The position numbers and the translations under genes are program-made. A model generated the notes under the pieces. The model ran no database searches. It saw only the letters and a program-made list of their open reading frames with translations, and was not told where the DNA came from. From positions 98,692 to 162,691 of IMG/VR virus record IMGVR_UViG_3300028048_000053: DNA of 64,000 nucleotides; one strand, written 5' to 3'. Below are positions 9,538-33,165 of the stretch, in pieces (within the stretch, counting starts at the first letter, position 1; each line of letters starts with the position of its first letter). The DNA comes from a virus.

Positions 9538-12050
9538 GTGAAGATTAACGATAGATATTATCCAGGTAGTCTTCATAATTAAACCATACGGATTATAGCA
9601 ATTTAAGACTACGCGATTCTATTAACACTATTTCAGGACTGATAGATTATGCTATAGAACTTAATCACGAAGTTATTGCTATAACAGACCACGAAAGTGT
9701 TAGTAATGCAATAAAGGTAGAGAAATATTATAATTCAATTAAAAAAGAACATCCAAACTTTAAAGTAATTTTAGGAAATGAAATATATCTAACCCGTGAT
9801 GGCCTTAATGCAGAGAACTTTGACAAAACCCAAGATAAATATTATCACTTCTTGCTCTTGGCGAAGGACGCTATTGGACATCAACAAATTAGAGAACTTT
9901 CTACAAGAGCATGGCTACGTTCATACACCGCTCAGAGAATGCGAAGAGTGCCAACCTATTATCAAGATTTGATTGATATTATCGGGGCAAATCCTGGTCA
10001 TGTCATTGCGTCAAGTGCGTGTTTAGGTGGCTTTATTCCAACTGAATTGCTTCAATGGAACGAAAATAAAGATGATAATTTTTATCAAAAAATTGTTCAA
10101 TGGGTTATTCAAATGAAACAATTATTTGATAATAATTTTTACCTGGAATTACAGCCGTCTGCTTCAAAAGAACAAACATTCGTAAATAGAGAATTGATAA
10201 ATCTATCAAGATTAACCAATACTCCATATATAATAACGACCGATAGCCATTATTTAACCAAAGAAGACGCAAGTATTCATAAAGCATATCTTAATTCGCA
10301 AGATGGTGATAGAGAGGTTGATAGCTTTTATGCAACAACCTATATGATGAGCACAGAAGAACTTGAATCACATCTAGACCTGACTGAAGAAGAATTAGTA
10401 TATGCGTATGAGAATATTTTGAACATCAAAGAGTCGTGTCAAGACTTTAGTTTATTAAAACCGCTTCGTATTCCAGAGCTGCTTTGGAAAACATATCCAG
10501 AAGATAGAGAAGCCATTGAGCACTATTCTCAATTAATTCCTTATCTTCAAACTTTTTATACCTCTGAATATATTGGCGATAAAATATTGGTTAATGCTAT
10601 TGTTGATAAATTAAAGAAAGAGACAAAATTAAACGAACAAAATACTTATGATGCTATAAATACTTGTTTGGAAATGACTTGGATTTCTTCGGAAGTAAAC
10701 AAGGCGCATTGGTCGGCATATTATTTAAATTTACAAAAAATTATTGATACTTGTTGGGAAGCTGGTAGTATTGTTGGTCCAGGGCGTGGTTCTGGCGTTG
10801 GATTTATCTTACTTTATATTTTAGATATTACCCAAATTAATCCTCTATGGGAAGATGTGCGGACGTTCGCTTGGAGATTTTTGAATCCAGCTCGTGTGTC
10901 CGTATTAGATGTAGATTTTGACATCGAGGGTGGCCGGCGGCCGCAAGTATTAACGAAGTTTAGAGAAGTTTATGGCGAAGACAGAGTAGCAAACGTAGTA
11001 ACTTTTGGAACCGAAAAATCTAAATCGGCGATTTTAACTGCGGCCCGTGGACTGGGTATTGATGTAGATGAAGCACAGTATATTTCATCTTTAGTTCCAT
11101 CTGATAGAGGAATGATACGCACCTTAAAACAATGCTACTACGGCGACGAAGAAAATGGTTTTGCCCCAATATCTTCTTTTATTAGAGAAATGGATGCCCG
11201 GCCAGAGCTCTGGCAGGTAGCGCAAAAAATAGAGGGTCTTGTATGCAGAATGGGTATTCACGCTGGCGGAGTTATTTTTGTTGATGAACCGTTTACTAAT
11301 ACAACGGGTCTTATGCGGGCACCCGATGGAACAATTATAACAGCCTTTGACCTTCATGACGCAGAAGCAGTAAGCCTTATTAAATATGATGCTCTTAGCG
11401 TTGAAGCCGAGGATAAAATACATGCTTGTATGGATTTGCTATTGGCCGATGGTGTTGTTGAGCCAGGAGCAACTTTAAAAGAAACCTATGAAAAGATAGT
11501 GGGTATATATGGACTTGAACGCGACGACCCCAAGATGTGGGAAATGGTTTGGAATCATAAAATCCTGTCGCTATTTCAAATGGAACAGCAAAGCGGTATT
11601 CAAGGTATTGCTTTAACAAAACCGAAAAGTGTAGAAGATTTAGCCCACTTGAATTCAGTCATTCGCTTAATGGCTCAAGAAAAAGGTGGAGAGCAGCCTT
11701 TATCCAAGTATGCTCGATTTAAAGAGAATCCAAAACTGTGGCGTCAGGAAATGACAAAATATGGATTGACAGAAGAAGAGCAACAGTTATTGGTACCATA
11801 TGTTGGAGGTTCTTATGGTATTTGCGAAAGCCAGGAGGGTTTCATGCAGTTGGTACAGATTCCAGAGTGTGGCGGCTTTGACCTAAACTTCGCAGACCGA
11901 CTTCGCAAAAGTATTGCAAAAAAGAATCCAAAAGAGTATGAAGCATTAACTAAGGAATATTTTGAAGTTACTGCGGAAAAAGGATTAAGCAAAAATCTGT
12001 GCAACTATGTATGGAACGTACTGGTAGCGACAAGTCGTGGTTACGGTTTT
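9538..12050 (+). CDS. dnaE: DNA polymerase III alpha subunit (DnaE-type), exon 1: PHP domain, palm and most of the fingers. There is an apparent frame break after codon 14.
   Basis: PHP motifs LHNHTDYS and AITDHESV. Palm motif GPGRGSGVGFILLYILDITQINPL. The ORF finder start at 9852 (TTG) would delete the PHP domain. GTG 9538 has an AGAGGGTGA RBS. The exon ends at U 12050 inside GYGF|N. Confidence 0.75.
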
Positions 12051-12366
12051 AAAATAAATTGAAACCCTATATAGAGATATATAGAAAAAAATCATTTAAA
12101 TTGCGGGAAACCCCTTAGAGCTTTAACAACCAAGTTTAAATAGTAATATTTAAATGGCGAGGGTAATGACTAAGGTATGGTAAAATCGTTAAAGATTGGG
12201 CAATCCGCAGCAAAATTTCGGACAAAAACTACTAATCCATAATATAAAAAATCCGAAAGATGTTCAGAGACTATAATAATGACTTCCTAAATGATGAAGA
12301 GAAGGAAGATGGTATAGTCCAGACTACAACAGAAAAAACTGGCTTAGGAAACTAAGAGTAGTAAAG
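12051..12366 (+). mobile_element. Group I self-splicing intron (316 nt, no internal ORF) interrupting dnaE
   Basis: 5' splice site after U. The internal guide GAAACC at 12061-12066 pairs with the exon end GGUUUU. Conserved elements are P AAUUGCGGGAAA (12098-12110), Q AAUCCGCAGC (12202-12211), R GUUCAGAGACUA (12262-12273) and S AAGAUGGUAUAGUCC (12306-12320). Omega-G lies at 12366. The spliced product gives the conserved GYGFNLSHTLAY junction. Confidence 0.8.
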
Positions 12367-13725
12367 AATTTATCACACACACTTGCGTATTCATTAGTAG
12401 CTCTTCAAGAAATGAATTTAGCTTTTCGATATCCAATCATCTATTGGAATTGCGCTTGTTTGATTGTAAACAGCGGTGGCAATAATGATGAAGAGAATTT
12501 TGATGATGAATCTACAAGTACTGACTATACAAAAATTGCAAAAGCATTAGGCGATACTATCATGGCTGGAATTAAAGTAAGTCTGGTAGATATTAATCGT
12601 TCAGACTTTGGTTTTAAGCCAGATGTTGATAATAACCAAATTCTTTTTGGAATGAAAGCTTTATTAAATGTTAATGATGATGTTGTTAAAGATATAATAG
12701 CTAAACGCCCATATGTTTCAATTAAAGATTTTTATTATAAAGTAAAACCAAAGAAACAAGCTATGATCTCTCTTATTAAGAGCGGCGCTTTTGATAATAT
12801 GATGGAGCGCAAGTTAGCAATGGCTTGGTACATTTGGGAAACTTGTGATAAGAAGAGTCGTTTAACTCTACAGAATTTACCTGGATTAATTCGATATGGT
12901 TTATTACCAGAAGATACTGAAGAAAGAGTAACGGCTAGACGAATTTATGAATTCAATCGGTATCTTAAAGCTGTATGTAAACATAAAGAAAATTCTACTT
13001 GGTATTTCTTAGACGATAGGGCAATAACCTTTTTACAAGAATTGGGATATGATAATTTAATTCAAGAAAATGAATTTCTTGAAATTAAGCCCTGGGATAA
13101 GATTTATCAAGGTTGGATGGATGTTTTTAGAACCTGGATTGCCGCAGATAAAGAAACTATTCTTGATAATTTAAATACTTTAATATTTAAGCAAGAGTGG
13201 GATAAATATGCATCTGGCAATTATTCATCGTGGGAAATGGAAGCCATGTGTTTTTATTATCATGACCATGAGCTAAAGAATATAGACTATCAAAAATATG
13301 GCTTGAGTAATTTCTTTAAACTGCCCACTATTCCAGTAGTAGAAAGAAGTTTTACCAAAGCTGGAAAGGTTATTAATATTTTTGAACTAACTCGTATATG
13401 TGGCACCTGTATTGCAAAGAATAAAAATAAAGGAACGGTATCTTTACTTACTCCGGAAGGAGTTGTAAATGTACGATTTGCTAAGGAATTATTTGCTATG
13501 TTTGATAAACAGCTTTCTGAGGTCCAGGAGGATGGTACCAAGAAGGTTACCGAGCGTAGTTGGTTTAATAGAGGTCAAATGATTATGGTTACGGGTATGC
13601 GGCAAGGCGATGATTTTGTTGTTAAAAAATATGCTTCTACCCCAGGTCATAGATTATATCATATAGACGAAATTATTAATGGAACTGAATTAAGAATGTC
13701 AGTGGAGAGGAATAGCACAGAATGA
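12367..13725 (+). CDS. dnaE: DNA polymerase III alpha (DnaE), exon 2: rest of the fingers, beta-binding region and C-terminal domain
   Basis: In frame 1 from 12367. Begins NLSHTLAYSL... and then IKVSLVDINRSDFGFKPDVDNNQILFGMKAL, which is DnaE-like. Ends with TGA at 13725. Confidence 0.75.
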   Translation, partial: NLSHTLAYSLVALQEMNLAFRYPIIYWNCACLIVNSGGNNDEENFDDESTSTDYTKIAKALGDTIMAGIKVSLVDINRSDFGFKPDVDNNQILFGMKALLNVNDDVVKDIIAKRPYVSIKDFYYKVKPKKQAMISLIKSGAFDNMMERKLAMAWYIWETCDKKSRLTLQNLPGLIRYGLLPEDTEERVTARRIYEFNRYLKAVCKHKENSTWYFLDDRAITFLQELGYDNLIQENEFLEIKPWDKIYQGWMDVFRTWIAADKETILDNLNTLIFKQEWDKYASGNYSSWEMEAMCFYYHDHELKNIDYQKYGLSNFFKLPTIPVVERSFTKAGKVINIFELTRICGTCIAKNKNKGTVSLLTPEGVVNVRFAKELFAMFDKQLSEVQEDGTKKVTERSWFNRGQMIMVTGMRQGDDFVVKKYASTPGHRLYHIDEIINGTELRMSVERNSTE

Positions 13726-14276
13726 GAAAGAATGTTAATGACATAGATGAATGGGTAATATTGGAAGAATTTCCTTCTTATAGTATAAACAGAAAAGGTT
13801 TTGTTAAAAATAACGAAACTGGACATATCAAAATTCCTTCTATGGGAACTAGAGGATATCCTGTGGTGTCCCTTCAAAAAAATAAAAAAACTTATTTAAG
13901 AACAATACATATTTTACTGGGAAGAACCTTTATTTTTAATAACGATCCTATTCATAAAACCTAGATAAATCATATAGATGGAGATAAGGCAAATTATAAT
14001 CTTTCAAATTTAGAATGGGTAACTCCACAAGAAAATAACAATCACGCTAGATGTACTGGTTTATATTTATCAGACGGTGATAAAGCTGTTATACAATTAG
14101 ATCAAAATAATAATATTATTGCCGAATATCGTTCTGCTTCAGAGGCAAGTAGAATTACAGGAATTGGGCGAGCTAATATTTGTAACGTATGTCGTCATTA
14201 TGTTTCTAAAGACAATAGGCATTATTATACAGCAGGAGGTTATAAATGGGAATGGAAAAAAAATATGATGCAATAA
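13722..14276 (+). CDS. HNH homing endonuclease (HNH_3 type with a C-terminal AP2/NUMOD-like DNA-binding region), free-standing
   Basis: EWVILEEFPSYSINRKGFVKN...NHIDGDKANYNLSNLEWVTPQEN. C-terminal GIGRANICNVCR...AGGYKWEW. ATGA overlap with the dnaE stop. One in-frame TAG. Confidence 0.8.
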
Positions 14277-14556: not shown

Positions 14557-16761
14557 ATGTTTGTTAAAAAACGTGATGGACAAAAAGTTATTTTTAATAA
14601 ACAAAAAATTGAAGATGCTATAAATAAAGCTTTTCTTGAAGTAGATGGATAGCTTTATGAAACTGATACCGCAAAAGAAATAGCCGATGAAATAGAAAGC
14701 TTCTATCAGTGCCATAAAATGGAGTAGCCAGATGTTGAAAGTATCCAAGATATGGTTGAAAAATATTTAATGTTGTCTGAACGCAAAGATGTTGCAAAAG
14801 CATATATTCGTTATAGATATAAAAAAGAGATTTTGCGTCAAACAAACCAGACCTATAATAGCATCTTAGATTTAGTCGAATTAAATAACCAAGAAATTAA
14901 AGATGAAAACTCAAATAAAAATCCTATTCAAGCCTCTACTTAGCGAGATTATATCGCTGGCGAGGTGAGTAAGGATGTCACACGCAGGATACTTCTTCCT
15001 TCGGTTGTGCAAGAGGCTCATGACAAAGGACAAATCCATTTTCATGATGCAGATTACTTTATTGAGCACATTTTTAATTGTTGTTTAGTAAATCTTGAAG
15101 ATATGCTGCAAAATGGAACCTGTATTAATAAAACTTTAATCGAAAAACCTCATAGCTTTAGAACAGCTTGTACTATTGCTACTCAAATAATCGCCGTCGT
15201 TGCATCTGGACAATATGGCGGACAATCTATTACCTTGTCACATTTAGCTCCTTTTGTTGATGTTTCTCGAAAAAATATCAGGGCTGAAGTGATAAGAGAA
15301 TTATCGAATTTATTAAAAAGAACTCCAGAAGATGACGAGGTAGAGCCCATTGTAAGAGAACGCCTCTTGCAAGAAATAAAAGATGGTGTTCAAACTATGT
15401 AGTATCAGATTAATACTCTTAATACTTCCAATGGCTAGACTCCGTTCGTAACTGTTTATATGTATTTAGGAGAAGTCCAAGACTCTCAAACCAAAAAGGA
15501 TTTGGCACTTATTATTGAAGAAGTGCTTAAGCAACGAATCCAAGGAGTTAAAAATGAAGTTGGAGTTTGGATTACTCCAGCTTTCCCAAAATTAATTTAT
15601 ACTTTAGAAGAAGATAATATTTATGAAGATTCTCCATATTATTATTTGACTGAACTTGCTGCAAAATGTACAGCGAAGAGAATGGTTCCAGATTATATCA
15701 GTGAAAAAATCATGCTCTAGCTAAAAGGGGATGTTTATCCCTGTATGGGATGTAGATCTTTTTTAACGCCAGATCGTTTTACCGATAAACATATAGGAAA
15801 TATAAGCAACGCAAAGAATTATATCGAAGGTTAGCATAAATATTATGGAAGATTTAACTAGGGCGTAGTTACAATAAATCTAGTAGATGTAGCGTGCTCG
15901 GCTAATGATGAAACAGAATTTTGGAAAATTTTAGATTAGAGACTAGAAATCTGCCATCTAGGACTTCAAGTACGTCATAAGAGATTATTAGGAACTGTCT
16001 CAGATATATCTCCTATTCATTGGTAGTACGGCGCTTTAGCCAGACTAAAAAAAGGAGAAACAATTGATAAATTACTGTATAATGGTTATTCTACTATTTC
16101 ATTAGGATATGCTGGATTATGGGAATGTGTTTATAAAATGACCGGTAAAAAATTAACTGAACCAGAAGGTAAAGAATTTGGTTTATAGGTAATGAAAAAA
16201 TTAAATGATGCTTGCGCCAAATGGAAAGCTGAAGAAAATATAGATTATTCAATTTATGGCACTCCAATTGAATCAACAACCTATAAATTTGCAAAATGCT
16301 TATAGAAACAGTTTGGTATTATACCAGGAGTAACCGATAAACAGTATATCACAAATAGTTATCACATCCATGTGACAGAACCAATTGATGCTTTCTCTAA
16401 AATTGCATTAGAGGCTGAATTTCAAGCTTTAAGTCCAGGAGGCGCAATTACCTATATAGAAGTTCCAAACATGTAGAATAATATTCCTGCTGTTTTAGAG
16501 GTTATGAAATTTATTTATAACCATATAATTTATGCTGAACTAAACACTAAATCAGATTACTGCCAAGTTTGTGGATATGATGGAGAAATAAAAATTGTAA
16601 CAGACGAGGAAACTCAGCGCCTAGTTTGGGAATGTCCTAATTGCGGCAACCGCGATCAAAGTAAGATGAACGTAGCAAGACGAACCTGTGGATATATAGG
16701 ATCCAACTTCTGGAACTAGGGTCGTACCGAAGAGATTGCGGAACGGGTATTGCATTTATGA
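14557..16761 (+). CDS. nrdD: Anaerobic ribonucleoside-triphosphate reductase NrdD (class III RNR) with an N-terminal ATP-cone, and about 14 in-frame TAG codons
   Basis: ATP-cone MFVKKRDGQKVIFNKQKI. C-terminal zinc ribbon CQVCGYDGE...CPNCGN and glycyl-radical motif RRTCGYIGS. All fragments in frame 1. RBS AGGAGG. Confidence 0.85.
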
Positions 16762-17453
16762 AAACATTTTATATTTATCGCCATACAAATCTAATAAATG
16801 GTAAAGTATATATAGGACAAACTTGTCAAAAGCCTGAATATCGCTGGGGTAAAGATGGCAATGGATATAAAAATTCTCCCCATTTTTACGCGGCAATTCA
16901 AGAATATGGATGGGAAAATTTTAAACATGAAATTCTTTATAGTGGTTTAACCCAAAAAGAAGCTAACGATAAAGAACAAGAACTGATACAATTATTTGAT
17001 GCTACAAATCCCGCCCAAGGTTATAACTCTGAATCAGGTGGTAAAAATAAAATTCCTAATCAATATACTAGAGAAAAATAGTCCTAGGCTGCCCTTAATA
17101 GACCTATCGTTTCCGAAGAGACAAAAAGAAAATTATCTAAAGTATCTTTAGGAATTTAGAGAAGTAAAGAAACAAAAGAGAAAATGCGAATTGCAGCCGT
17201 GAGGAGAGAACAAAAACGTTCTACCAAGTCTAGCCCAGTTATATGTATAAATACTGGTCAATATTTCTCTTCATGTCGTAAGGCTGCTGATTGGTGTGGA
17301 TTAGCCGGGGTAAGTGGTATCTGTTTGGTTTGTAAAGGAAAAAAACAGAAAACCGCAGGTGCTCACCCCATAACAAAAGAGAAGTTGTTTTGGAGATATG
17401 CCACACAAGAGGAGATACGATAGCATGAGATATGCAACAATCAAAAAAAATGA
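16758..17453 (+). CDS. GIY-YIG homing endonuclease with NUMOD-like C-terminal repeats
   Basis: YIYRHTNLINGKVYIGQT and following GIY-YIG core residues. C-terminal repeated ETKRKLSKVSLG / ETKEKMRIAAV. Fragments in frame 0. The 3' end depends on TAG read-through and overlaps the nrdG start. Confidence 0.7.
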
Positions 17454-17916
17454 TATTGCAAATGGTGAAGGTATTGGAGTGTCTTTTTTTGTATAGGGAT
17501 GCCCAATAAGATGTTTTAATTGCTTTAATAAAGAAACATGGGATTTTAATGGCGGAAAAGAATTTACTATTGACACATTAACTGAAATTATTGAAGCGAT
17601 AAAAGCAAATGGAATAAATCGCCATTTTAGCGTATTAGGTGGAGAACCCTTATGCCAAGAAAATTTATTTTTAACAGCTTTAGTAATCAAAACCGTTCGA
17701 GAAACATATCCAAATATAAAAATTTATGTGTGGACTGGTTATACCGAAGAACAGCTTCAAAAGCGTACTGATAGTAAATTATCTTATATATTTGAAAATA
17801 TAGATTATTTAATAGCTGGGCCTTATATTGACAGCGAACGCGATATAACGCTCCCCATGTGCGGCAGCCGCAATCAAAAAATCATAAAAATGCATGAGGA
17901 AGATAAAAATGGGTGA
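17425..17916 (+). CDS. nrdG: Anaerobic RNR activating enzyme NrdG (radical SAM)
   Basis: GCPIRCFNCFN cluster (CxxxCxxC). One in-frame TAG. Frame 1. Ends with TGA at 17916. Confidence 0.8.
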
Positions 17917-23673: not shown

Positions 23674-24063
23674 TCAATGAATATAATAAACTCTTGTTTC
23701 AATCATGCTTTTAATATATTCGTTTAAGTCAAGTGATATACTCTATAAGTAATTCCGTGCTTCACTTGGTAAAAGCTCTAGCACAGCTTTATAAGTATCT
23801 TCAAAAGCTTTCTTTTGAGCTTCTAAATCAAACTTACCTTGCTTTTTTAATGAATCGACATAGGTTTGCTAAGTCGTCATAACGCAGTTGGTAACTGTTT
23901 GATTTAGCATATCAATATATTTATTATAAAGCTCATTATTTGTTTTTGTTTTTAATTCCTCTGCCTTAGTAGAAATCCAGGAGACTAAGTATTTGGTTAG
24001 AATAATTAGCACTGGGATGATTACTAGCTGAAAAACAGAAGATATAATATCTTGAATGTTCAT
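23674..24063 (-). CDS. Small membrane protein (TM plus coiled coil), with the same architecture as the 23167-23625 plus-strand gene
   Basis: TM LVIIPVLIILTKYLVSWI. Two TAG codons. RBS TAGGAGGAG before the ATG. Confidence 0.45.
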
Positions 24064-24069
24064 TTTATA

Positions 24070-25134
24070 TTACTCCTCCTAAAGAAATTTATTGTACATA
24101 TTTATCCAGTCTGGGATACATTTTCGCCAAGAAAAATCATAAGTCATAACTTCTGCAATCTTTTTTTGCAATAGTTTTTTGTTATTATAAAGTGAACAAG
24201 CTTCTGAAATAGCTTGGTTAGAATTAAAATATGGAATACAATTATGCTTGTTGAAGGAATCGCTTATTCCCTAAGACAACTAAATTATTGGAATAGCTCC
24301 ATATCGACAAGCATGACGCGGCATTAAAGGAGAAATATCATTAATTGTATTAACAGTCAAGAAGAAATCTGACCCAGACAAAAATTTCACTGTATGCTAT
24401 GGAGACATCCATTCATCCATTGAAATTATATGACCATATTTAATCTTTTCTGGACATACGCAAAGAAAGATTCCATTGTTTTCATCAATACAATCTGCTA
24501 TTTCATAAAACAAATTTATGCCTTTTTTCTCAACAAAACGCCCCATATACAGAAATATCGGCTAATTTGAATTGATTGATAAGACTTTACATAAGTTGTT
24601 TTTGCATATAGTTTTACCAAGTTGATGTTTGGCATTATATTTACAAGGTAAAAACATTCCATTATCTGGATCAATAATATCATCCAATATACCTGTGGAA
24701 AGAGCATAGTCAGCACAGAATTTATGCTAAAGATTGGCAGATAAAACAACTGTTTTTTTATATAACCCACAGGGTATTCTTTCATCAATTGTATACAAAA
24801 TCTTATTCCTATATTTCTTATTTATAAATGGCTCTATATCAACCAACTAGATAATATCTGGGTCTATTGTATCAAGCACGGTATCTAGATAATTCCAATT
24901 CGTTAGTTCATAAAAAAACACTTTTAAAAATTGACAAACAACATAATTTTCTTGTTTTTGTATGAAATCAGTGGAAAAATCTATAAAAAAAGTCTATTCT
25001 TTGTTTTCAGTAATAACATAAACTTCTTGACCACTATCAGCGAGAGATATTGCCAATCCATCAATAAATTCTGAAACTCCCGTCTATATTTTATTGCATA
25101 TAATACTTTGGCTACCAATTAAACATATTCTCAT
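24070..25134 (-). CDS. GT-B glycosyltransferase (GT4/GT5 glycogen/starch-synthase-like), about 354 aa, about 9 TAG codons
   Basis: N-terminus MRICLIGSQ...ADSGQEVYVIT is the GT4/GT5 signature. Its start overlaps the upstream stop as ATGA (translational coupling). The C-terminus is read through TAG codons. Confidence 0.55.
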
Positions 25135-26360
25135 TTTAAAATTTGTTGCACCTTTCTTTCATGGAGCAAAGATTTTACCATTCTCAATCCGGAAGCAGTA
25201 TCCATAGTTTTTAGCAATTCTTCATTTGCGGCTGTTTCAGAAGTAAGTAATCCTTCCGCCCAATAGGTTTTATCAGTTGTCCATAATCCATAACATGTAT
25301 CTTGTTCAAGTTTTATTTCTCTTTTTATTAGTGCAGGGGTTGAACCATCGATTTTTACAGCTCGTTCACCAATATTCCACAAATGCAAATATTGATAAAA
25401 ACCTTGTTCGATATTGAAAAATCTATGTGGATTGGTTGTATGGACAATAGTGCCATCATCAAAATAATAATAATTAGAAACTGGACTTATTCCTTGATTG
25501 GCTATTTTTACAATTCCAACAGGGTTTTTGTTTTTTCCTAAAACTCTATCCTTAACTGTTAAATCCTTAATCATTTTCTAAGTTCCGTCAGCCATAGTTA
25601 TTAAACTATCACCACTTAAACACTCAAACCTTATATAATAGATTGCTTCATCAACGTTTATATTTAAATTTTCATTTCCAGTTGCAAGACAACAAACATA
25701 AAAGTGATTTTCTGCGCCACTGGTAGCTGTAAATGCATCACTCAGCGTATTAGTAATACTCTATTCTTCTTCATTGGTTTCCCACTAAAAATAAAAATTA
25801 AAGTTAAGGTCTTCTCCTCCAGGGTTACTCAAACTTGTACCAGCAAAAAAATTCGCTATTGCATCGTCTTTTGTTTTCTCTTTGTTACTAATTAGATATA
25901 CCATATCATTATATATACTCATTGAGTTTGGGTTAATACTACCCTAAATACTCCAAAATTTTTGAATAGGACTTGTCTCTGTGTTGCCATCTGAATGAAC
26001 TGACCACTAAATTTGATCGCTATAATAAATATTATAATTTTCTATTGCTTCTACATCTATTTCCTCGTAATCATCAATAGGTTCAGTATATTCTTCAACG
26101 GCCAAAGTGAAAGTTAAAGTATGGTCCGATACTAAATATTGATTGGGATAATCACGCCAAGCTATAAGTGCCCATGAATATAAATCATTTTCATCGCATT
26201 GTAGCTATTCGTTATTAGTAATAAACGTAATATTATTTAACTACTCTTCTAAAAGGTAAAAAGGAGGGTCGTTTAAATAATATTTGAAATCATATATACT
26301 ATTATCGCCAAAAGTAGCTTCAAACTTGGATTCAAAAGAATTTTGTGAAATAAGTCCCAT
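25131..26360 (-). CDS. Virion-module protein containing a Hint / bacterial intein-like (BIL) domain in its C-terminal half. Start uncertain.
   Basis: Block A-like RFE|CLSGDSLITMADGTQKMIKDLTVKDRVLGKN. C-terminal block ...TYWAEGLLTSE. Single frame (low positions congruent to 25572 mod 3) through about 8 TAG codons. Ends with TGA at 25131. Candidate starts are ATG 26360 or 26489. Confidence 0.55.
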
Positions 26361-26615
26361 AGACTCCGAATATATTTTTAACTACTATAATACAAAAAAA
26401 ACATTTTCATTGTTAATTAAAAAAGAAAACTAAGACAATAATTCTAGAGGAACTAAAGAAAAATTTATAGATGAAATATTGCTCGAACATTTAAAATCTA
26501 TTTGTTTAATCCTAGCTAATGTCCAATATACTGGAACATACATAAAAGAGGTTAGAATACAAGACTGTAGTAAGCCCGGAAAATCAGGGTGCGTCACCAC
26601 AACACACTAAGCTCG

Positions 26616-27293
26616 TTTATTGTCGGCCCCCGTATTTATATAAGAAGTAAAAGATTTTTTTTTCTTGTTTATTTTGCATATTAAACTATCATTGCTGGAT
26701 AATTGTAAATTTGATGCAGTCTAAGACAAATCCCGCACAAAAATAAAACGAGGTAATTGTTTCTCGTTTAGTAAATTCGGTGATACAAAAAATAGCAATC
26801 CGCTATATGCACTATCGGCGTCATAGTTTTCTAGCTGTGACAAATCAAAATACTTTAAATATGTCATTGGATTAGCACTTTGAATATCTTCATCTGATGC
26901 AAGAAAAGACTGCACATTGGTCATCATTTCTGATATAATTTGGGATAAATTACCAAAATACATTACTCCCAAATCAGACTAGCCATTTATTGATAGAAAG
27001 TAACAAGACAAATCTACATAGCTGCCATCCTCTAGAGGAAGTTGTAATATAAAGGTATCTGTATTTTCTGGCAAATAATTTAAGTTTAAATTCAAAGAAG
27101 AAATTTCTGTTCCAGAGTATATTCTTTTTTGTTCATCTGTAATATCATCTGTAATAACAAATTCTATTTGCGATGCTTCCTAGGAAGGCTCATTTGCTGG
27201 AACCGGTAAATAGTTTGCAGTTTTTGCTCCAATATGATGGATTTGTTCAAAAAAGGAATGTGTAGTTCCAGAAGTAAAAGTCCATTGAGACAT
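26616..27293 (-). CDS. Hypothetical protein (about 225 aa)
   Basis: GAGGGGG RBS and ATG 27293. Fragments 26721-26972 in frame. TAA at about 26616 after a T9 homopolymer. Confidence 0.4.
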
Positions 27294-27296
27294 TAA

Positions 27297-27563
27297 TTAT
27301 TCCCCCTCGTCCTATTCAGGAATATCTTCACTTTCAATAAAAGAAGAAACAACCAAAAATACATCGCCTTCTTCTACCTAAGATAAATCATCATCTTCCG
27401 AATATATGGTGTAAAGTTGCTCAATCTTTTCCGAAACCTAATTCGCCGTTAGTCCATTCTCCTAGATATTATCATCTAGAGTTTTTTCATATATACTATC
27501 AACTATACTTTGCCAATCCTCCTAATACATTTTTACAAAACTATTATTATCAGTCTAACCCAT
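27297..27563 (-). CDS. Small acidic protein (about 88 aa) transcribed divergently from UppS
   Basis: ATG at about 27563 preceded by AAAGGAGG. Ends GEE-TAA. Confidence 0.35.
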
Positions 27564-27587
27564 GTTTGCCTAAAATCCTCCTTTAAA

Positions 27588-27678
27588 ATCCCTTTTTATT
27601 TTTATAATAACATAAAAAATATGTAATGTCAAACTTGACAAAATATATTTTTTATGTTATTATAAAAATAAAAAGGGA
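27588..27678. promoter_or_regulatory. About 90-bp near-perfect palindrome forming back-to-back sigma70-like promoters (TTGACA-17-TATTAT on each strand) with symmetric RBSs
   Basis: Arms 27588-27622 and 27644-27678 are reverse complements. Inner palindrome TGTCAAACTTGACA. Plus-strand -35 at 27635-27640 and -10 at 27658-27663. Confidence 0.55.
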
Positions 27679-27687
27679 TGAATAATA

Positions 27688-28323
27688 ATGATTACACATT
27701 TAGCAATAATTCCAGATGGCAACCGAAGATGGGCCAGGGAACGTGGTCTACCCGATGGGGCTGGACACGCGCAGGCCCCAACCGTATTATTGCGGATACT
27801 TGATTGGTGTATAGATAAACAAATCAAATATTTAACAGTTTATTGTTTTTCTTCCGATAATTGGAAACGCTCTTCGGAAGAAAGAGCAAATTTAAATGCT
27901 ATTGCCATTCAGTTTTTTACTGATTTTACAGATTGGTTTTTGAAAAACGATATTCGTTTTGTCGCTTAGGGAGATAGAACTGGTTTTAATAAATTCAGCG
28001 AAGAGTTATAGAGCTGTATCTATCAGGCAGAAGAAAAGACAAAAAATTGTTCAACTTTAACAGTTTTTTGTTTACTTAACTATAGTGGTCAACAAGAATT
28101 AATAAATACCATTTCTCAAGGCAAAACACCCGCAGACCTGCGGCCTCCGGTAGATGTAATTGTTAGGACTGGCAAAGAAAAGCGTTTAAGTAATTTTTTA
28201 CCCTGGGAAGCTTGTTATGCTGAGTTAGTATTTAGAGACGAGTATTTTCCAGATATTGACTATTTTATTTTAGAAGATATTTATCAGGAATATGAATCTC
28301 GAGATAAAAGATATGGCAAATAA
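27688..28323 (+). CDS. uppS: Undecaprenyl-pyrophosphate synthase homologue (cis-prenyltransferase, UppS)
   Basis: HLAIIPDGNRRWA, LTVYCFSSDNWKRS, DVIVRTGKEKRLSNFLPWEACYAELVF and C-terminal RDKRYGK align with E. coli UppS blocks. One in-frame TAG at about 27970. Confidence 0.8.
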
Positions 28324-28324
28324 C

Positions 28325-28352
28325 GGAGAGAAATTTTTAATTTCTCTCCATT
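28325..28352. terminator. Bidirectional terminator (GGAGAGAAATTTTTAATTTCTCTCC plus T-run)
   Basis: Perfect hairpin right after the uppS stop and before the stop of the convergent minus gene. Confidence 0.6.
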
Positions 28353-31437: not shown

Positions 31438-33165
31438 TTATACGATTTGATTGCTTGTGTAATAAGTTGTGTTGATATCTGGAGTGCCTGTAAATGTGCC
31501 GCCTGTATTTAAAAACATGTTAGAAAGTGCGTTGCTCGCCGTCGTTCCCGTTCCTTCTGCCGGTATGCGGTATGAGGATTGGTATTCTTCTGACGTAGAT
31601 AATTGTATTTTTGTACAACCTTTAAACATACTGTCATAGCATCCGGTTGTAAGTTTTGTTGCTGGCAGAGATGGTAAACCTATGAGCTCGACACACTCTT
31701 GATACATATATCTGTAGCAGTAGTTTGCAAGACTCGTTGCTGGAAGTCTCGTTGGTGTCTGGAGACTGCTGCATCCCCGGAACATAGCCTGATAGCAATA
31801 GGCCGCAAGAGTGGTAGCGGGGAGATTCGGCGCCTGACGCAGAGAGCTGCACCCTTCAAACATGGATGCGTAGCAAGATTGACCAAGCGATGTGGCGGGT
31901 AGCTCCGGGGGAATCTGCAAAGATGAGCAGCCTTCGTACATGCGCCCATAACAGTAAGCTGCTGCGGTGGTGGCTCTCAAAACGCCGGGATTCTCGAGTG
32001 CGCTGCAGTATCGAAACATAGAATGGAAGCAGCTACTATTTAGGCTTGTAGCAGATATATCAGGAGCAGAGAGCAGTCTTGTACACCCTTCAAACATACT
32101 TTGATAACACTTATCCTTCATCGATGTGGCAGGGAGCGCCGGAGCCGATTCGAGGGAAGTGCAACCCTTGAACATTTCACAGTAGCACATCGTTCCAAGC
32201 GTTGTTGCAGGCAGGGCCGGAGGCACCTTGAGGCTCGTGCAGCCTTTGAACATATTGGTGTAGCAGTACCCACTTGAAAGCGATCTCGCCGGAAGCTCTG
32301 GTGCATCTTCAAGGGCAGTGCAATTCTCGAACATGTATCCGTAGCAGGTCATAGGCAGCGACGTTGCCCTCAGCGCAGGAGCTTTGCGGAGCGCAGTACA
32401 GCCTGAAAACATAGAGTGATAGCATTTTTGGCCTAATGAAATAGCTGGAAGTTCAGGGGGCTCGACCAATGATTTACATCCAGAAAAGCAGAGAGTAAGG
32501 CAGTTTGCTCCAAGCGACGTGGCGGCGATAACGGGCGCTTCGCTTATCTTGCAGGCAGCAAACATCCCGTTATAGCACGATTCTGGGGCAGTTTTAGCTG
32601 GCAAGATTGACGGGCCTTTCGTCAGGTTCGTGCAGCCGTGGAACATATAAAAGAAACATTGCTCGGAAATTGTTGGCAACGGGATTTCAGGGGCAGAAAC
32701 AAGCGCAGTACAACCATAGAACATGCAAGAAAAAGCACCTGTTGTCACCGACGGGTGAAGCCCATCAGCCACTTGTTGATAGTCAAGTAAGTTCTCGATG
32801 TTCCCTGAGCAATGGACATTTTCTCCAGTAATTGTCCATTTATAACTTGGCGGATAATTGAAATTATATCCGGTAATCTTGGTATTATTTCTCCCACGTA
32901 GATATAATTTGTTTTTCTATCCACTTGTAAGTGTATCTTCGCCATCCCATACCTCCCACGTCCTCCCATTAGTAGACCATTCCAGCGTTCCATTCCAATG
33001 CTTAAAAGCGGTCAATGTAAACGGTCCTATGCTGCTAAAAGTAAGACACGAATCATTCACAGGCTCTTCGGTTTTTTCCCAAAGCTATATATCTCCTTGA
33101 TATACCTTTTTTATATTTTTTTCGCCTTTATAAATAGCCGAAATATTTTCCCAGTTAGAAATCAC
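31438..33165 (-). CDS. Surface/receptor-binding protein with about 16 BspA-type leucine-rich repeats (LRR_5 family)
   Basis: Repeats of C(Y/F)xxMFxGC(T/S)SLxxxPxLPAT(S/T)L, about 23 aa, throughout 31438-32772. That part is GC-rich and TAG-free. The frame continues upstream through 2 TAG codons to GTG at about 33165 with a GAGGAAGAGGAG RBS. Confidence 0.7.

Follow-up and report, generated by a model that had tools for sequence, protein, structure and literature searches.

We analyzed a 64-kb stretch of viral DNA (64,000 nucleotides, positions 98,692 to 162,691 of the IMG/VR virus record IMGVR_UViG_3300028048_000053; hereafter the window), focusing on a minus-strand gene whose product ends in a putative Hint autoprocessing domain and which overlaps a glycosyltransferase gene. 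The predicted fold and the catalytic residues indicate that the C-terminal domain of this protein is a member of the Hint superfamily. It appears to be of the non-splicing, N-terminal-cleavage type, as found in Hedgehog and in some bacterial intein-like (BIL) domains. The gene is part of a cassette that recurs in phages and in which such a Hint-tailed protein is encoded together with a glycosyltransferase related to glycogen synthase (GlgA) and, in many cases, with prenyl diphosphate synthases. With roughly even confidence, we propose that the gene product is a two-part, non-splicing autoprocessing precursor that is paired with the GlgA-derived glycosyltransferase and tied to a polyprenyl-dependent glycosylation pathway. 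Hint domains drive protein splicing and the cholesterol modification of Hedgehog proteins. To our knowledge, their roles outside inteins and toxins have hardly been studied in prokaryotes and viruses.

The extent of the gene depends on the genetic code. Under the standard (bacterial) code, the region around position 25131 yields short open reading frames (ORFs) only. The ORF ending at this position comprises 147 aa, starts after block A of the Hint domain and lacks the catalytic cysteine. Reading TAG as a sense codon doubled the amount of window sequence contained in long ORFs, the longest of which spans 3,116 codons, and gave a coherent tailed-phage map with portal, capsid-type proteins, a 3,111-aa tape measure protein, tail genes and holin. 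When NrdD (14557-16761, plus strand, 14 in-frame TAG codons) was aligned with a solved homolog, TAG fell on conserved Gln sites (TQRD, SNGQTPF, YQYGA, LQQN); at variable sites the TAG columns showed Glu or other residues. We thus infer that TAG is read as Gln, adopted this as the working code for the window and dropped the standard-code reading of the Hint gene. TAG is used as a sense codon throughout the window, in early (plus-strand) and late (minus-strand) genes, and a few genes are TAG-free. No tRNA, suppressor or other, and no Rfam match was found in the 64-kb window.

With TAG read as Gln, the Hint-tailed gene encodes a protein of 720 aa. The ortholog P0002 (678 aa) from another TAG-recoded locus, L005 (proteins and loci of the family are numbered with P and L, respectively), aligns with residues 17 to 713 of the window protein, supporting the start at 27293. 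One of the in-frame TAG codons, at residue 572, lies within block A. In this alignment column P0002 also has TAG, and standard-code relatives carry T, Q or K. A first-pass annotation of this DNA had recognized three Hint blocks, and all of them lie on the minus strand in one frame once the TAG at 25578-25580 is read through. The N-terminal region preceding them, estimated there at about 250 aa, comprises 557 aa under the revised code, and the true start lies outside the interval that the annotation had covered.

Block A reads RFE/CLSGDSLITMADGT-TAG-KMIKDL on the minus strand (the slash marks the predicted scissile bond), and the C-terminal block, ...YWAEGLLTSE, closes at residue 686. A short tail of 34 residues remains, close to the 35 aa or so that had been anticipated. 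Taken alone, the window protein scored 18.4 bits against the Pfam family PF05203 (Hom_end_hint, cut-off 32.1) and 16.0 bits against PF01079 (Hint, cut-off 29.7), with only block A matched. Its three best matches among PDB sequences were all inteins, at E values of about 0.7-1. Because the Pfam scores of the protein itself are sub-threshold, membership in the Hint superfamily rests on the family profile and on the fold. A profile built from 35 family sequences matched BIL2 (6Y75/6TMM) at 1.2e-10, PI-SceI at 5e-6 and the BIL domain of C. thermocellum (2LWY) at 4.9e-4. Hedgehog chains matched the profile at E = 0.25-0.4, in the N-terminal half only. Conversely, PF01079 was matched by 23 of the 35 family members at E ≤ 0.01 (best value 3.9e-9). 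Prediction with AlphaFold2 (AF2) from the single sequence was unusable (predicted local distance difference test, pLDDT, 28.7). A model of the Hint domain based on a 61-sequence alignment was used instead (pLDDT 91.9, predicted template modelling score, pTM, 0.85). A Foldseek search of this model against the PDB returned 53 matches at E ≤ 1e-3, and the 50 matches listed were all inteins, BIL or Hedgehog domains, which share the pseudo-two-fold beta horseshoe of the Hint fold. The best structural match was the gp41-1 mini-intein (2.2e-8; target-normalised TM 0.87; root-mean-square deviation 1.9 Å), together with BIL2 6Y75 (2.2e-8), the C. thermocellum BIL domain 2LWY (3.2e-7) and Hedgehog 1AT0/6TYY (about 1e-6); class 3 DnaB inteins were found as well. 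The Hint assignment of the first-pass annotation was thus not borne out by the Pfam models for the single protein, but it held for the family profile searched against solved Hint structures and for the AF2 fold.

An alignment of 129 family domains contained four invariant residues, namely Cys558, His623 of the block-B TxxH motif, one Trp and one Leu. The domains are otherwise 30-60% identical, and invariance of Cys and His at this level of divergence argues for retained catalysis. The block-B Thr is kept in 63 of the 129 domains, including that of the window protein. Arg624, Asn627 and Trp639 are invariant or nearly so in the family; we take them to lie outside the textbook intein blocks. The residue preceding the Cys558 equivalent varies (V39, T17, S16 and others), the junction in the window protein being Phe-Glu/Cys-Leu. 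Family domains end in Y-[YFW]-A-N-G-L-L-S-G. In the tail-bearing members (n = 105), the intein Asn is most often replaced by Glu (26), Asp (23), Ala (14) or Ser (9), the penultimate Gly is kept in 96, and the +1 residue is Ala in 48, Thr in 30 and Val in 9. In the alignment to BIL2, the family motif LLSG-E/D falls on VLAH-N. The corresponding junction of the window protein is Ser685-Glu686 followed by Thr687 (+1), and the splicing His-Asn pair is absent. Since the residues of the N-to-S acyl shift are invariant and those required for C-terminal cleavage or ligation are not conserved, the domain would be of the non-splicing type. This agrees with the earlier proposal of a bacterial intein-like module that is not a canonical intein. 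The domain is of the BIL- or Hog-like kind; it retains Cys and the block-B His, but has neither the His-Asn pair at its C-terminal end nor a +1 nucleophile that is conserved.

Among solved structures, the BIL domains are the closest sequence relatives of the phage family, in particular BIL2 from Tetrahymena thermophila BUBL1. They share with it the status of a non-intein Hint domain with N-terminal Cys and block-B His that resides in variable, non-housekeeping proteins, and they process their flanks without canonical splicing. BIL2 differs in that it keeps the C-terminal His-Asn, where the phage family has Gly-(E/D/A), and in that it sits between ubiquitin-like domains. The phage domains, in contrast, are followed by a 34-aa helical tail of their own and are encoded beside a glycosyltransferase.

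To estimate the size of the family, we used the stop-free stretch of 148 aa at the C-terminus as the query of an exhaustive search of 1.84 billion cluster representatives. This search gave 410 matches at E ≤ 1e-3, of which 141 had E ≤ 1e-10, with the best non-self match at 3e-50; these values put the Hint signal far beyond what chance would give. The family thus comprises at least 410 clusters (50% identity), and Hint domains are not rare among phages in the sequence databases, though no member was found in 50,697 deposited phage genomes. Among the matches listed, the Hint domain always occupies the extreme C-terminus of proteins of 180-1,900 aa. The N-terminal domains recognized among 85 full-length members comprise DnaJ-type CxxCxGxG Zn fingers (24), Big_3 (3), PKD (1) and LRR_5 (1). 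The pattern is that of a conserved, putatively self-processing C-terminus on hypervariable, adhesin-like N-termini. In functional terms, this recalls the S74 chaperones of tailspikes and fibres, where a conserved self-cleaving C-terminus is likewise found on unrelated N-termini near fibre genes. S74 is an analogy of function only, since its fold and chemistry (a Ser-Lys dyad in a trimer) are unrelated and it has no partner enzyme, and no S74 peptidase domain was matched in the window protein or in family members.

A minority of the domains (22 of 129) is tail-less and ends in GLL[ST]G[ND]R; here the residue aligned with the intein Asn is Asn or Asp, and +1 is always Arg. These members may perform C-terminal as well as N-terminal cleavage. 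One tail-less Hint protein adjoins a CHAP endolysin in a prophage with a Tn916-type integrase, and in another, P0125 (1,908 aa), the long N-terminal region is rich in repeats and looks fibre-like by eye only. Some family members are already labelled 'Hint' in records of uncultivated Caudoviricetes metagenome-assembled genomes (MAGs), so that the bare presence of a Hint domain in phages is not new. A full-text literature search, whose partial coverage makes the result an absence of evidence, returned only terminase inteins, PT-HINT toxins and reviews; we could not find the family or the Hint-glycosyltransferase-UppS cassette described. The new element is therefore this cassette, in which Hint protein, glycosyltransferase and prenyl synthase (UppS, a cis-prenyltransferase) are combined.

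The cassette was assessed in nine IMG/VR loci from the family alignment, two Lachnospiraceae MAG loci, fourteen metagenome loci and the contigs of individual members; the tally was limited to tail-type Hint loci with at least about 1 kb of readable downstream sequence (n = 32). In all 32 loci the next gene was the GlgA-derived glycosyltransferase, with stop and start codons mostly sharing 4 nt. The ATGA overlap that had been reported for the window was confirmed, and the two genes likewise share 4 nt (ATGA or GTGA) in L005, L007-L014, L021 and L038-L040. In L005, the locus of the closest ortholog, the glycosyltransferase that follows is 48% identical to that of the window and overlaps through GTGA. 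The co-expression suggested earlier on the basis of the overlap is thus strengthened by the conservation of the pair. A UppS gene (Pfam 2.5e-64) was present in 24 of the 32 loci, and in 15 an FPP-synthase-type trans-polyprenyl synthetase (Pfam 1e-41; NCBIfam FPPsyn 1.5e-52) lay between glycosyltransferase and UppS. The association also held in the reverse direction: at least 120 homologs of the glycosyltransferase were found, 117 of them 44-94% identical, and each of three divergent ones that we chose followed immediately on a gene for a tail-type Hint protein, with which it overlapped through ATGA. Tail-less Hint loci (L001-L004, L023) had no glycosyltransferase, UppS or FPP-synthase-like gene nearby. 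Loci with the cassette have GC contents of 31 to 60% and include standard-code as well as TAG-recoded ones. The idea that the glycosyltransferase is a neighbour by chance was considered and rejected. As four adequately flanked loci (L005, L016, L034, L038) lack UppS, the Hint-glycosyltransferase pair appears to be the core of the cassette and the prenyl synthases frequent accessories.

Typically, fibre genes (collagen-like or Phage_fiber_rpt) precede the cassette and holin and endolysin come after it, with lysis genes following in L007-L014 and L038. In the window, the order is baseplate-like 956-aa protein, UppS, an 88-aa ORF, Hint protein, glycosyltransferase and holin. A role of the Hint protein in the virion module is suggested by position only, between baseplate or fibre genes and holin. 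UppS, accompanied in the high-GC lineage by an FPP-synthase-like gene, lies in the late or tail-lysis region of the window, of L007-L014 and of L025-L032 (e.g., L009 11672-13086).

The glycosyltransferase itself scored 47 bits against the glgA model TIGR02095, whose cut-off is 328 bits. A standard-code homolog from L009 reached 157 bits (5.6e-46). The standard-code homolog matches glycogen synthase structures at 1e-23 and keeps the RxxxxKG and EPCGL...RYG...GGL motifs; in the window enzyme, Asp replaces the Glu of the EPCGL motif, as judged by eye. Only the C-terminal two-thirds of glgA aligns, and the phage proteins measure 354-404 aa compared with about 477 aa for GlgA. The phage enzymes represent a separate clade derived from GlgA/GT5 and not GlgA itself. 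The GT4/GT5 classification in the first-pass annotation was sound insofar as the enzyme is of the GT-B type and closest to GlgA/GT5. The annotation had not picked up the TAG recoding, the neighbouring UppS gene or the conserved cassette. The UppS of the window passes the NCBIfam model TIGR00055 with 157 bits (cut-off 109.55). Its matches in GenBank phages reach 30-34% identity only; one lies on a bacterial contig, and several lie on short phage-labelled fragments without annotation. A late phage operon with UppS and FPP synthase is unusual, and we found no clear counterpart in the 50,697 deposited phage records or in the literature searched.

The two segments that flank the Hint domain behave in opposite ways. 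The N-terminal region of 557 residues, for which we use the term cargo, gave no match in Pfam, PHROGs, PDB, an index of 5.8 billion proteins, GenBank phages or IMG/VR; in the PDB, nothing was better than E = 0.49. Likewise, the full 720-aa protein found nothing in the 5.8-billion-protein word index, by tblastn of the 50,697 phage records or in IMG/VR, and megablast of the window from 20 to 44 kb gave no match in the phage records. The cargo resembles only P0002 (29% identity, E = 5e-6; 38% over the distal part), and even a two-sequence profile detected no relationship to the N-termini of other family members. The tail, in contrast, for which a helix-turn-helix is predicted with good confidence, is present in 105 of the 129 family domains, with Asn690 kept in 102 and a Ser in 90 of these 105. 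It resembles the GN34 region of glycogenin, the conserved helix-turn-helix (about 34 aa) at the C-terminus through which this protein binds glycogen synthase (PMC9188544), in that both are paired with a GT-B enzyme of the glycogen-synthase type.

On this basis, we envisage the following scheme. Cys558 would attack the carbonyl of Glu557, and an N-to-S acyl shift aided by His623 would yield a thioester, whose resolution would free the cargo (residues 1-557) from the Hint domain and tail. Together with the GlgA-derived glycosyltransferase, the Hint module would make up an obligate pair whose members are co-translated. Because the tail is restricted to the glycosyltransferase-linked subfamily, we propose it as the dock of the transferase, by analogy with glycogen synthase on the C-terminal 34 residues of glycogenin. 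UppS, supplemented by FPP synthase in some lineages, would feed the same pathway with polyprenyl carrier. In this view, the Hint domain and tail would serve as a detachable adaptor through which the cargo, ahead of its release, is linked to polyprenyl-dependent glycosylation. As to the thioester, resolution by water, i.e., hydrolytic release, is the outcome that we favour at a little under even confidence; resolution by a glycolipid or glycan made by the cassette (adduct transfer) seems tentatively possible, and the absence of any cleavage improbable.

Several points weigh against this proposal. Cleavage, the interaction of tail and glycosyltransferase, and virion association are deduced from sequence, predicted structure and gene order, and the window protein on its own falls below the Pfam Hint thresholds. 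Many of the 32 loci are closely related and correspond to about ten independent lineages, as judged from the spread of scores. The link between glycosyltransferase and polyprenyl carriers is suggested by gene neighbourhood only, four well-flanked loci lack UppS, and the normal donors of GT-B enzymes are nucleotide sugars. Acidic and only weakly amphipathic, with a hydrophobic moment of 0.1-0.4, the tail gives no hint of lipid binding. The comparison with glycogenin is an analogy of structure and function, not homology. Eukaryotic glycogen synthase belongs to GT3, not GT5, and the phage enzyme stems from bacterial GlgA (GT5).

Some of these points also bear on a related scheme in which the thioester is attacked, as in Hedgehog or BUBL, by the hydroxyl or amine of a polyprenyl-(pyro)phosphate-linked sugar, so that the cargo becomes esterified or amidated to a glycolipid. 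We regard such a transfer as somewhat unlikely. That the cassette encodes its own carrier-lipid synthesis would be most sensible if the carrier were consumed and not recycled, and Arg624, Asn627 and Trp639 could form an acceptor site. Precedents exist in Hedgehog, which passes its cargo to cholesterol, and in BIL2, the closest solved relative of the family profile, whose N-terminal flank is passed on to the amine of an external Lys (PMC8616854). The phage protein also shares with Hedgehog/Hog proteins the N-terminal cargo, the C-terminal Hint domain and the lack of a C-terminal splice junction. Its short conserved extension, found only in the glycosyltransferase-linked subfamily, parallels the Hint+SRR/ARR 'Hog' layout, in which the post-Hint extension of Hedgehog recruits the lipid that resolves the thioester (PMC2362128). 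However, the chemistry of glycolipid transfer rests on analogy, the Gly-Cys-Phe junction of Hedgehog is missing (here FE/CL), and the tail is shorter (34 aa), is without demonstrated SRR similarity and is not membrane-active by simple measures. The putative lipid pathway of the cassette is polyprenyl and not sterol. No signal peptide is present, so the product would remain on the cytoplasmic face, and both the donor preference of GT-B enzymes and the loci without UppS count against the scheme. Its extension to gut Firmicutes phages, with a Hedgehog-like lipidation or glycolipidation in which the Hint thioester of a hypervariable late protein is resolved by a polyprenyl-linked sugar supplied through the glycosyltransferase and UppS/FPP synthase, appears to us unlikely. 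A Hint domain that no longer cleaves and serves, together with the tail, as a folded scaffold holding the glycosyltransferase on the cargo would be in line with the variable block-B Thr, with the lack of any conserved C-terminal catalytic residue and with the strict pairing, which could mean a stable complex. The invariance of Cys1 and the block-B His in 129 divergent sequences, where neighbouring positions vary freely, makes this scaffold quite improbable.

Two further readings, the polymorphic toxin and the canonical intein, both fail their defining tests. The first-pass annotation had likened the architecture to that of bacterial intein-like or polymorphic-toxin Hint modules and had named a delivered effector as one possibility; in the toxin reading, a pre-toxin Hint domain would release a C-terminal toxic peptide. 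PT-HINT domains do resemble the phage family in serving autoproteolytic release in fast-evolving, conflict-related proteins; PT-HINT (PF07591) was among the weaker Pfam matches in 4 of 35 members, and the N-termini are hypervariable. The polarity is opposite, however, since the variable part precedes the Hint domain and the conserved 34 aa that follow are too short for a toxin; instead of an immunity gene, the glycosyltransferase comes next in 32 of 32 loci. We consequently consider a toxin very improbable. We give still less credence, in fact hardly any, to a canonical (mini-)intein that would splice the N-terminal part to the 34-aa tail, in spite of the best structural match to the gp41-1 mini-intein and the Thr at +1 of the window protein. 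The His-Asn pair is lacking (the terminal residue being Glu in the window and E/D/A/S in the family), the +1 residue varies, the N-termini to which the domain is fused are unrelated to one another, and neither a homing endonuclease nor an intein-free homolog of the supposed host protein was found.

If the proposed precursor only cleaves itself, it would constitute a novel type of detachable adaptor for late proteins of phages, and the self-cleaving module could serve as a tool for protein engineering. Glycolipid transfer, if true, would give Hedgehog lipidation a viral counterpart and bacteria a new post-translational modification. It would yield a covalently glycolipid-tagged phage protein by the first Hint-mediated adduct transfer outside eukaryotes, which would be categorically new. 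The analysis turns an isolated motif into a testable pathway and defines a large phage family of putatively non-splicing Hint proteins, one subfamily of which is locked to a glycogen-synthase-derived transferase and carrier-lipid synthases. The features of the window that belong to this system are compiled in Table 1.

Table 1 Positions of the Hint-tailed gene, its predicted parts and adjacent features in the window (numbering from the first nucleotide of the 64-kb stretch)
Feature	Position	Strand	Basis
Hint-tailed precursor gene, 720 aa, 14 in-frame TAG, stop TGA 25131-25133	25131..27293	-	ORF under TAG readthrough, ortholog P0002
N-terminal 'cargo', residues 1-557, lineage-specific, without recognisable domain	25623..27293	-	Database searches
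Predicted Hint autoprocessing domain (Hedgehog/intein fold), residues 558-686	25236..25622	-	AF2, Foldseek, family profile
Cys558 codon TGT, predicted nucleophile; predicted scissile bond Glu557-Cys558	25620..25622	-	Cys in 129/129 family domains
In-frame TAG, residue 572, within Hint block A; as a stop it would sever the catalytic Cys from the domain	25578..25580	-	Sequence
His623 codon CAT, block-B His of TxxH (T620-N-P-H623)	25425..25427	-	His in 129/129 family domains
Conserved 34-aa tail, residues 687-720, predicted helix-turn-helix (helices ~689-696, 699-718)	25134..25235	-	AF2 secondary structure
ATGA stop/start overlap of Hint-tailed gene and glycosyltransferase gene	25131..25134	-	Sequence
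GlgA-derived GT-B glycosyltransferase, 354 aa, 9 in-frame TAG	24070..25134	-	glgA TIGR02095 1.2e-12 (below cut-off); Pfam Glycos_transf_1 4.6e-4
Holin, 129 aa, next gene downstream of the glycosyltransferase	23674..24063	-	phrog_13712, 3.3e-25
Acidic 88-aa ORF, first of the operon, 3 nt upstream of the Hint-tailed gene	27297..27563	-	Homolog upstream of L005 ortholog, E = 1.9e-6
Mirror-symmetric divergent sigma-70-like promoter pair in near-perfect inverted repeat	27604..27663	.	Each TTGACA-17-TATTAT, extended TG
UppS (cis-prenyltransferase, undecaprenyl/polyprenyl diphosphate synthase), 211 aa, 2 in-frame TAG	27688..28323	+	Pfam Prenyltransf PF01255 5.2e-51
Terminator-like hairpin, 11-bp stem and T run, directly after UppS	28325..28349	+	Sequence

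The 88-aa ORF and UppS are divergently oriented and separated by a 124-nt spacer (27564-27687) that forms a near-perfect palindrome of about 90 nt with matching ribosome-binding regions. Each of the two promoters shows 11 of 12 consensus matches, and they are the top two in the region; one faces the operon of the 88-aa ORF, Hint protein and glycosyltransferase, and the other faces UppS. The mirror-image twin promoters, together with the terminator-like hairpin after UppS, make the UppS unit and the Hint-glycosyltransferase operon look co-regulated. The palindrome may also be the operator of a symmetric regulator.

Further observations concern the remainder of the window. The portal protein is nearest to that of the gut Phage Phass-1 (38.6%), followed by large Enterococcus phages (28%). 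On the minus strand, positions 31438-32724 encode a 428-aa protein with Cys-rich repeats of about 23 aa ('CYxxMFxGCxxL') in a TAG-free gene. It had no Pfam match at E ≤ 1e-4, and its PHROGs matches were to families of unknown function only. The GC content of this patch (0.42, compared with about 0.31-0.36 around it) suggests that the gene was recently acquired. DNA polymerase III alpha is split into two TAG-free plus-strand ORFs separated by a 350-nt gap, one with NTPase and finger domains (9939-12062) and one with HHH_6 (12412-13725). This region matched neither group I nor group II intron models, and an HNH endonuclease gene (13722-14276, plus strand) directly follows the HHH_6 ORF. NrdD is followed by a GIY-YIG endonuclease gene (16758-17453, plus strand), and a 172-aa ORF (17398-17916, plus strand) could, as a guess from its position, encode an NrdG-type activase.

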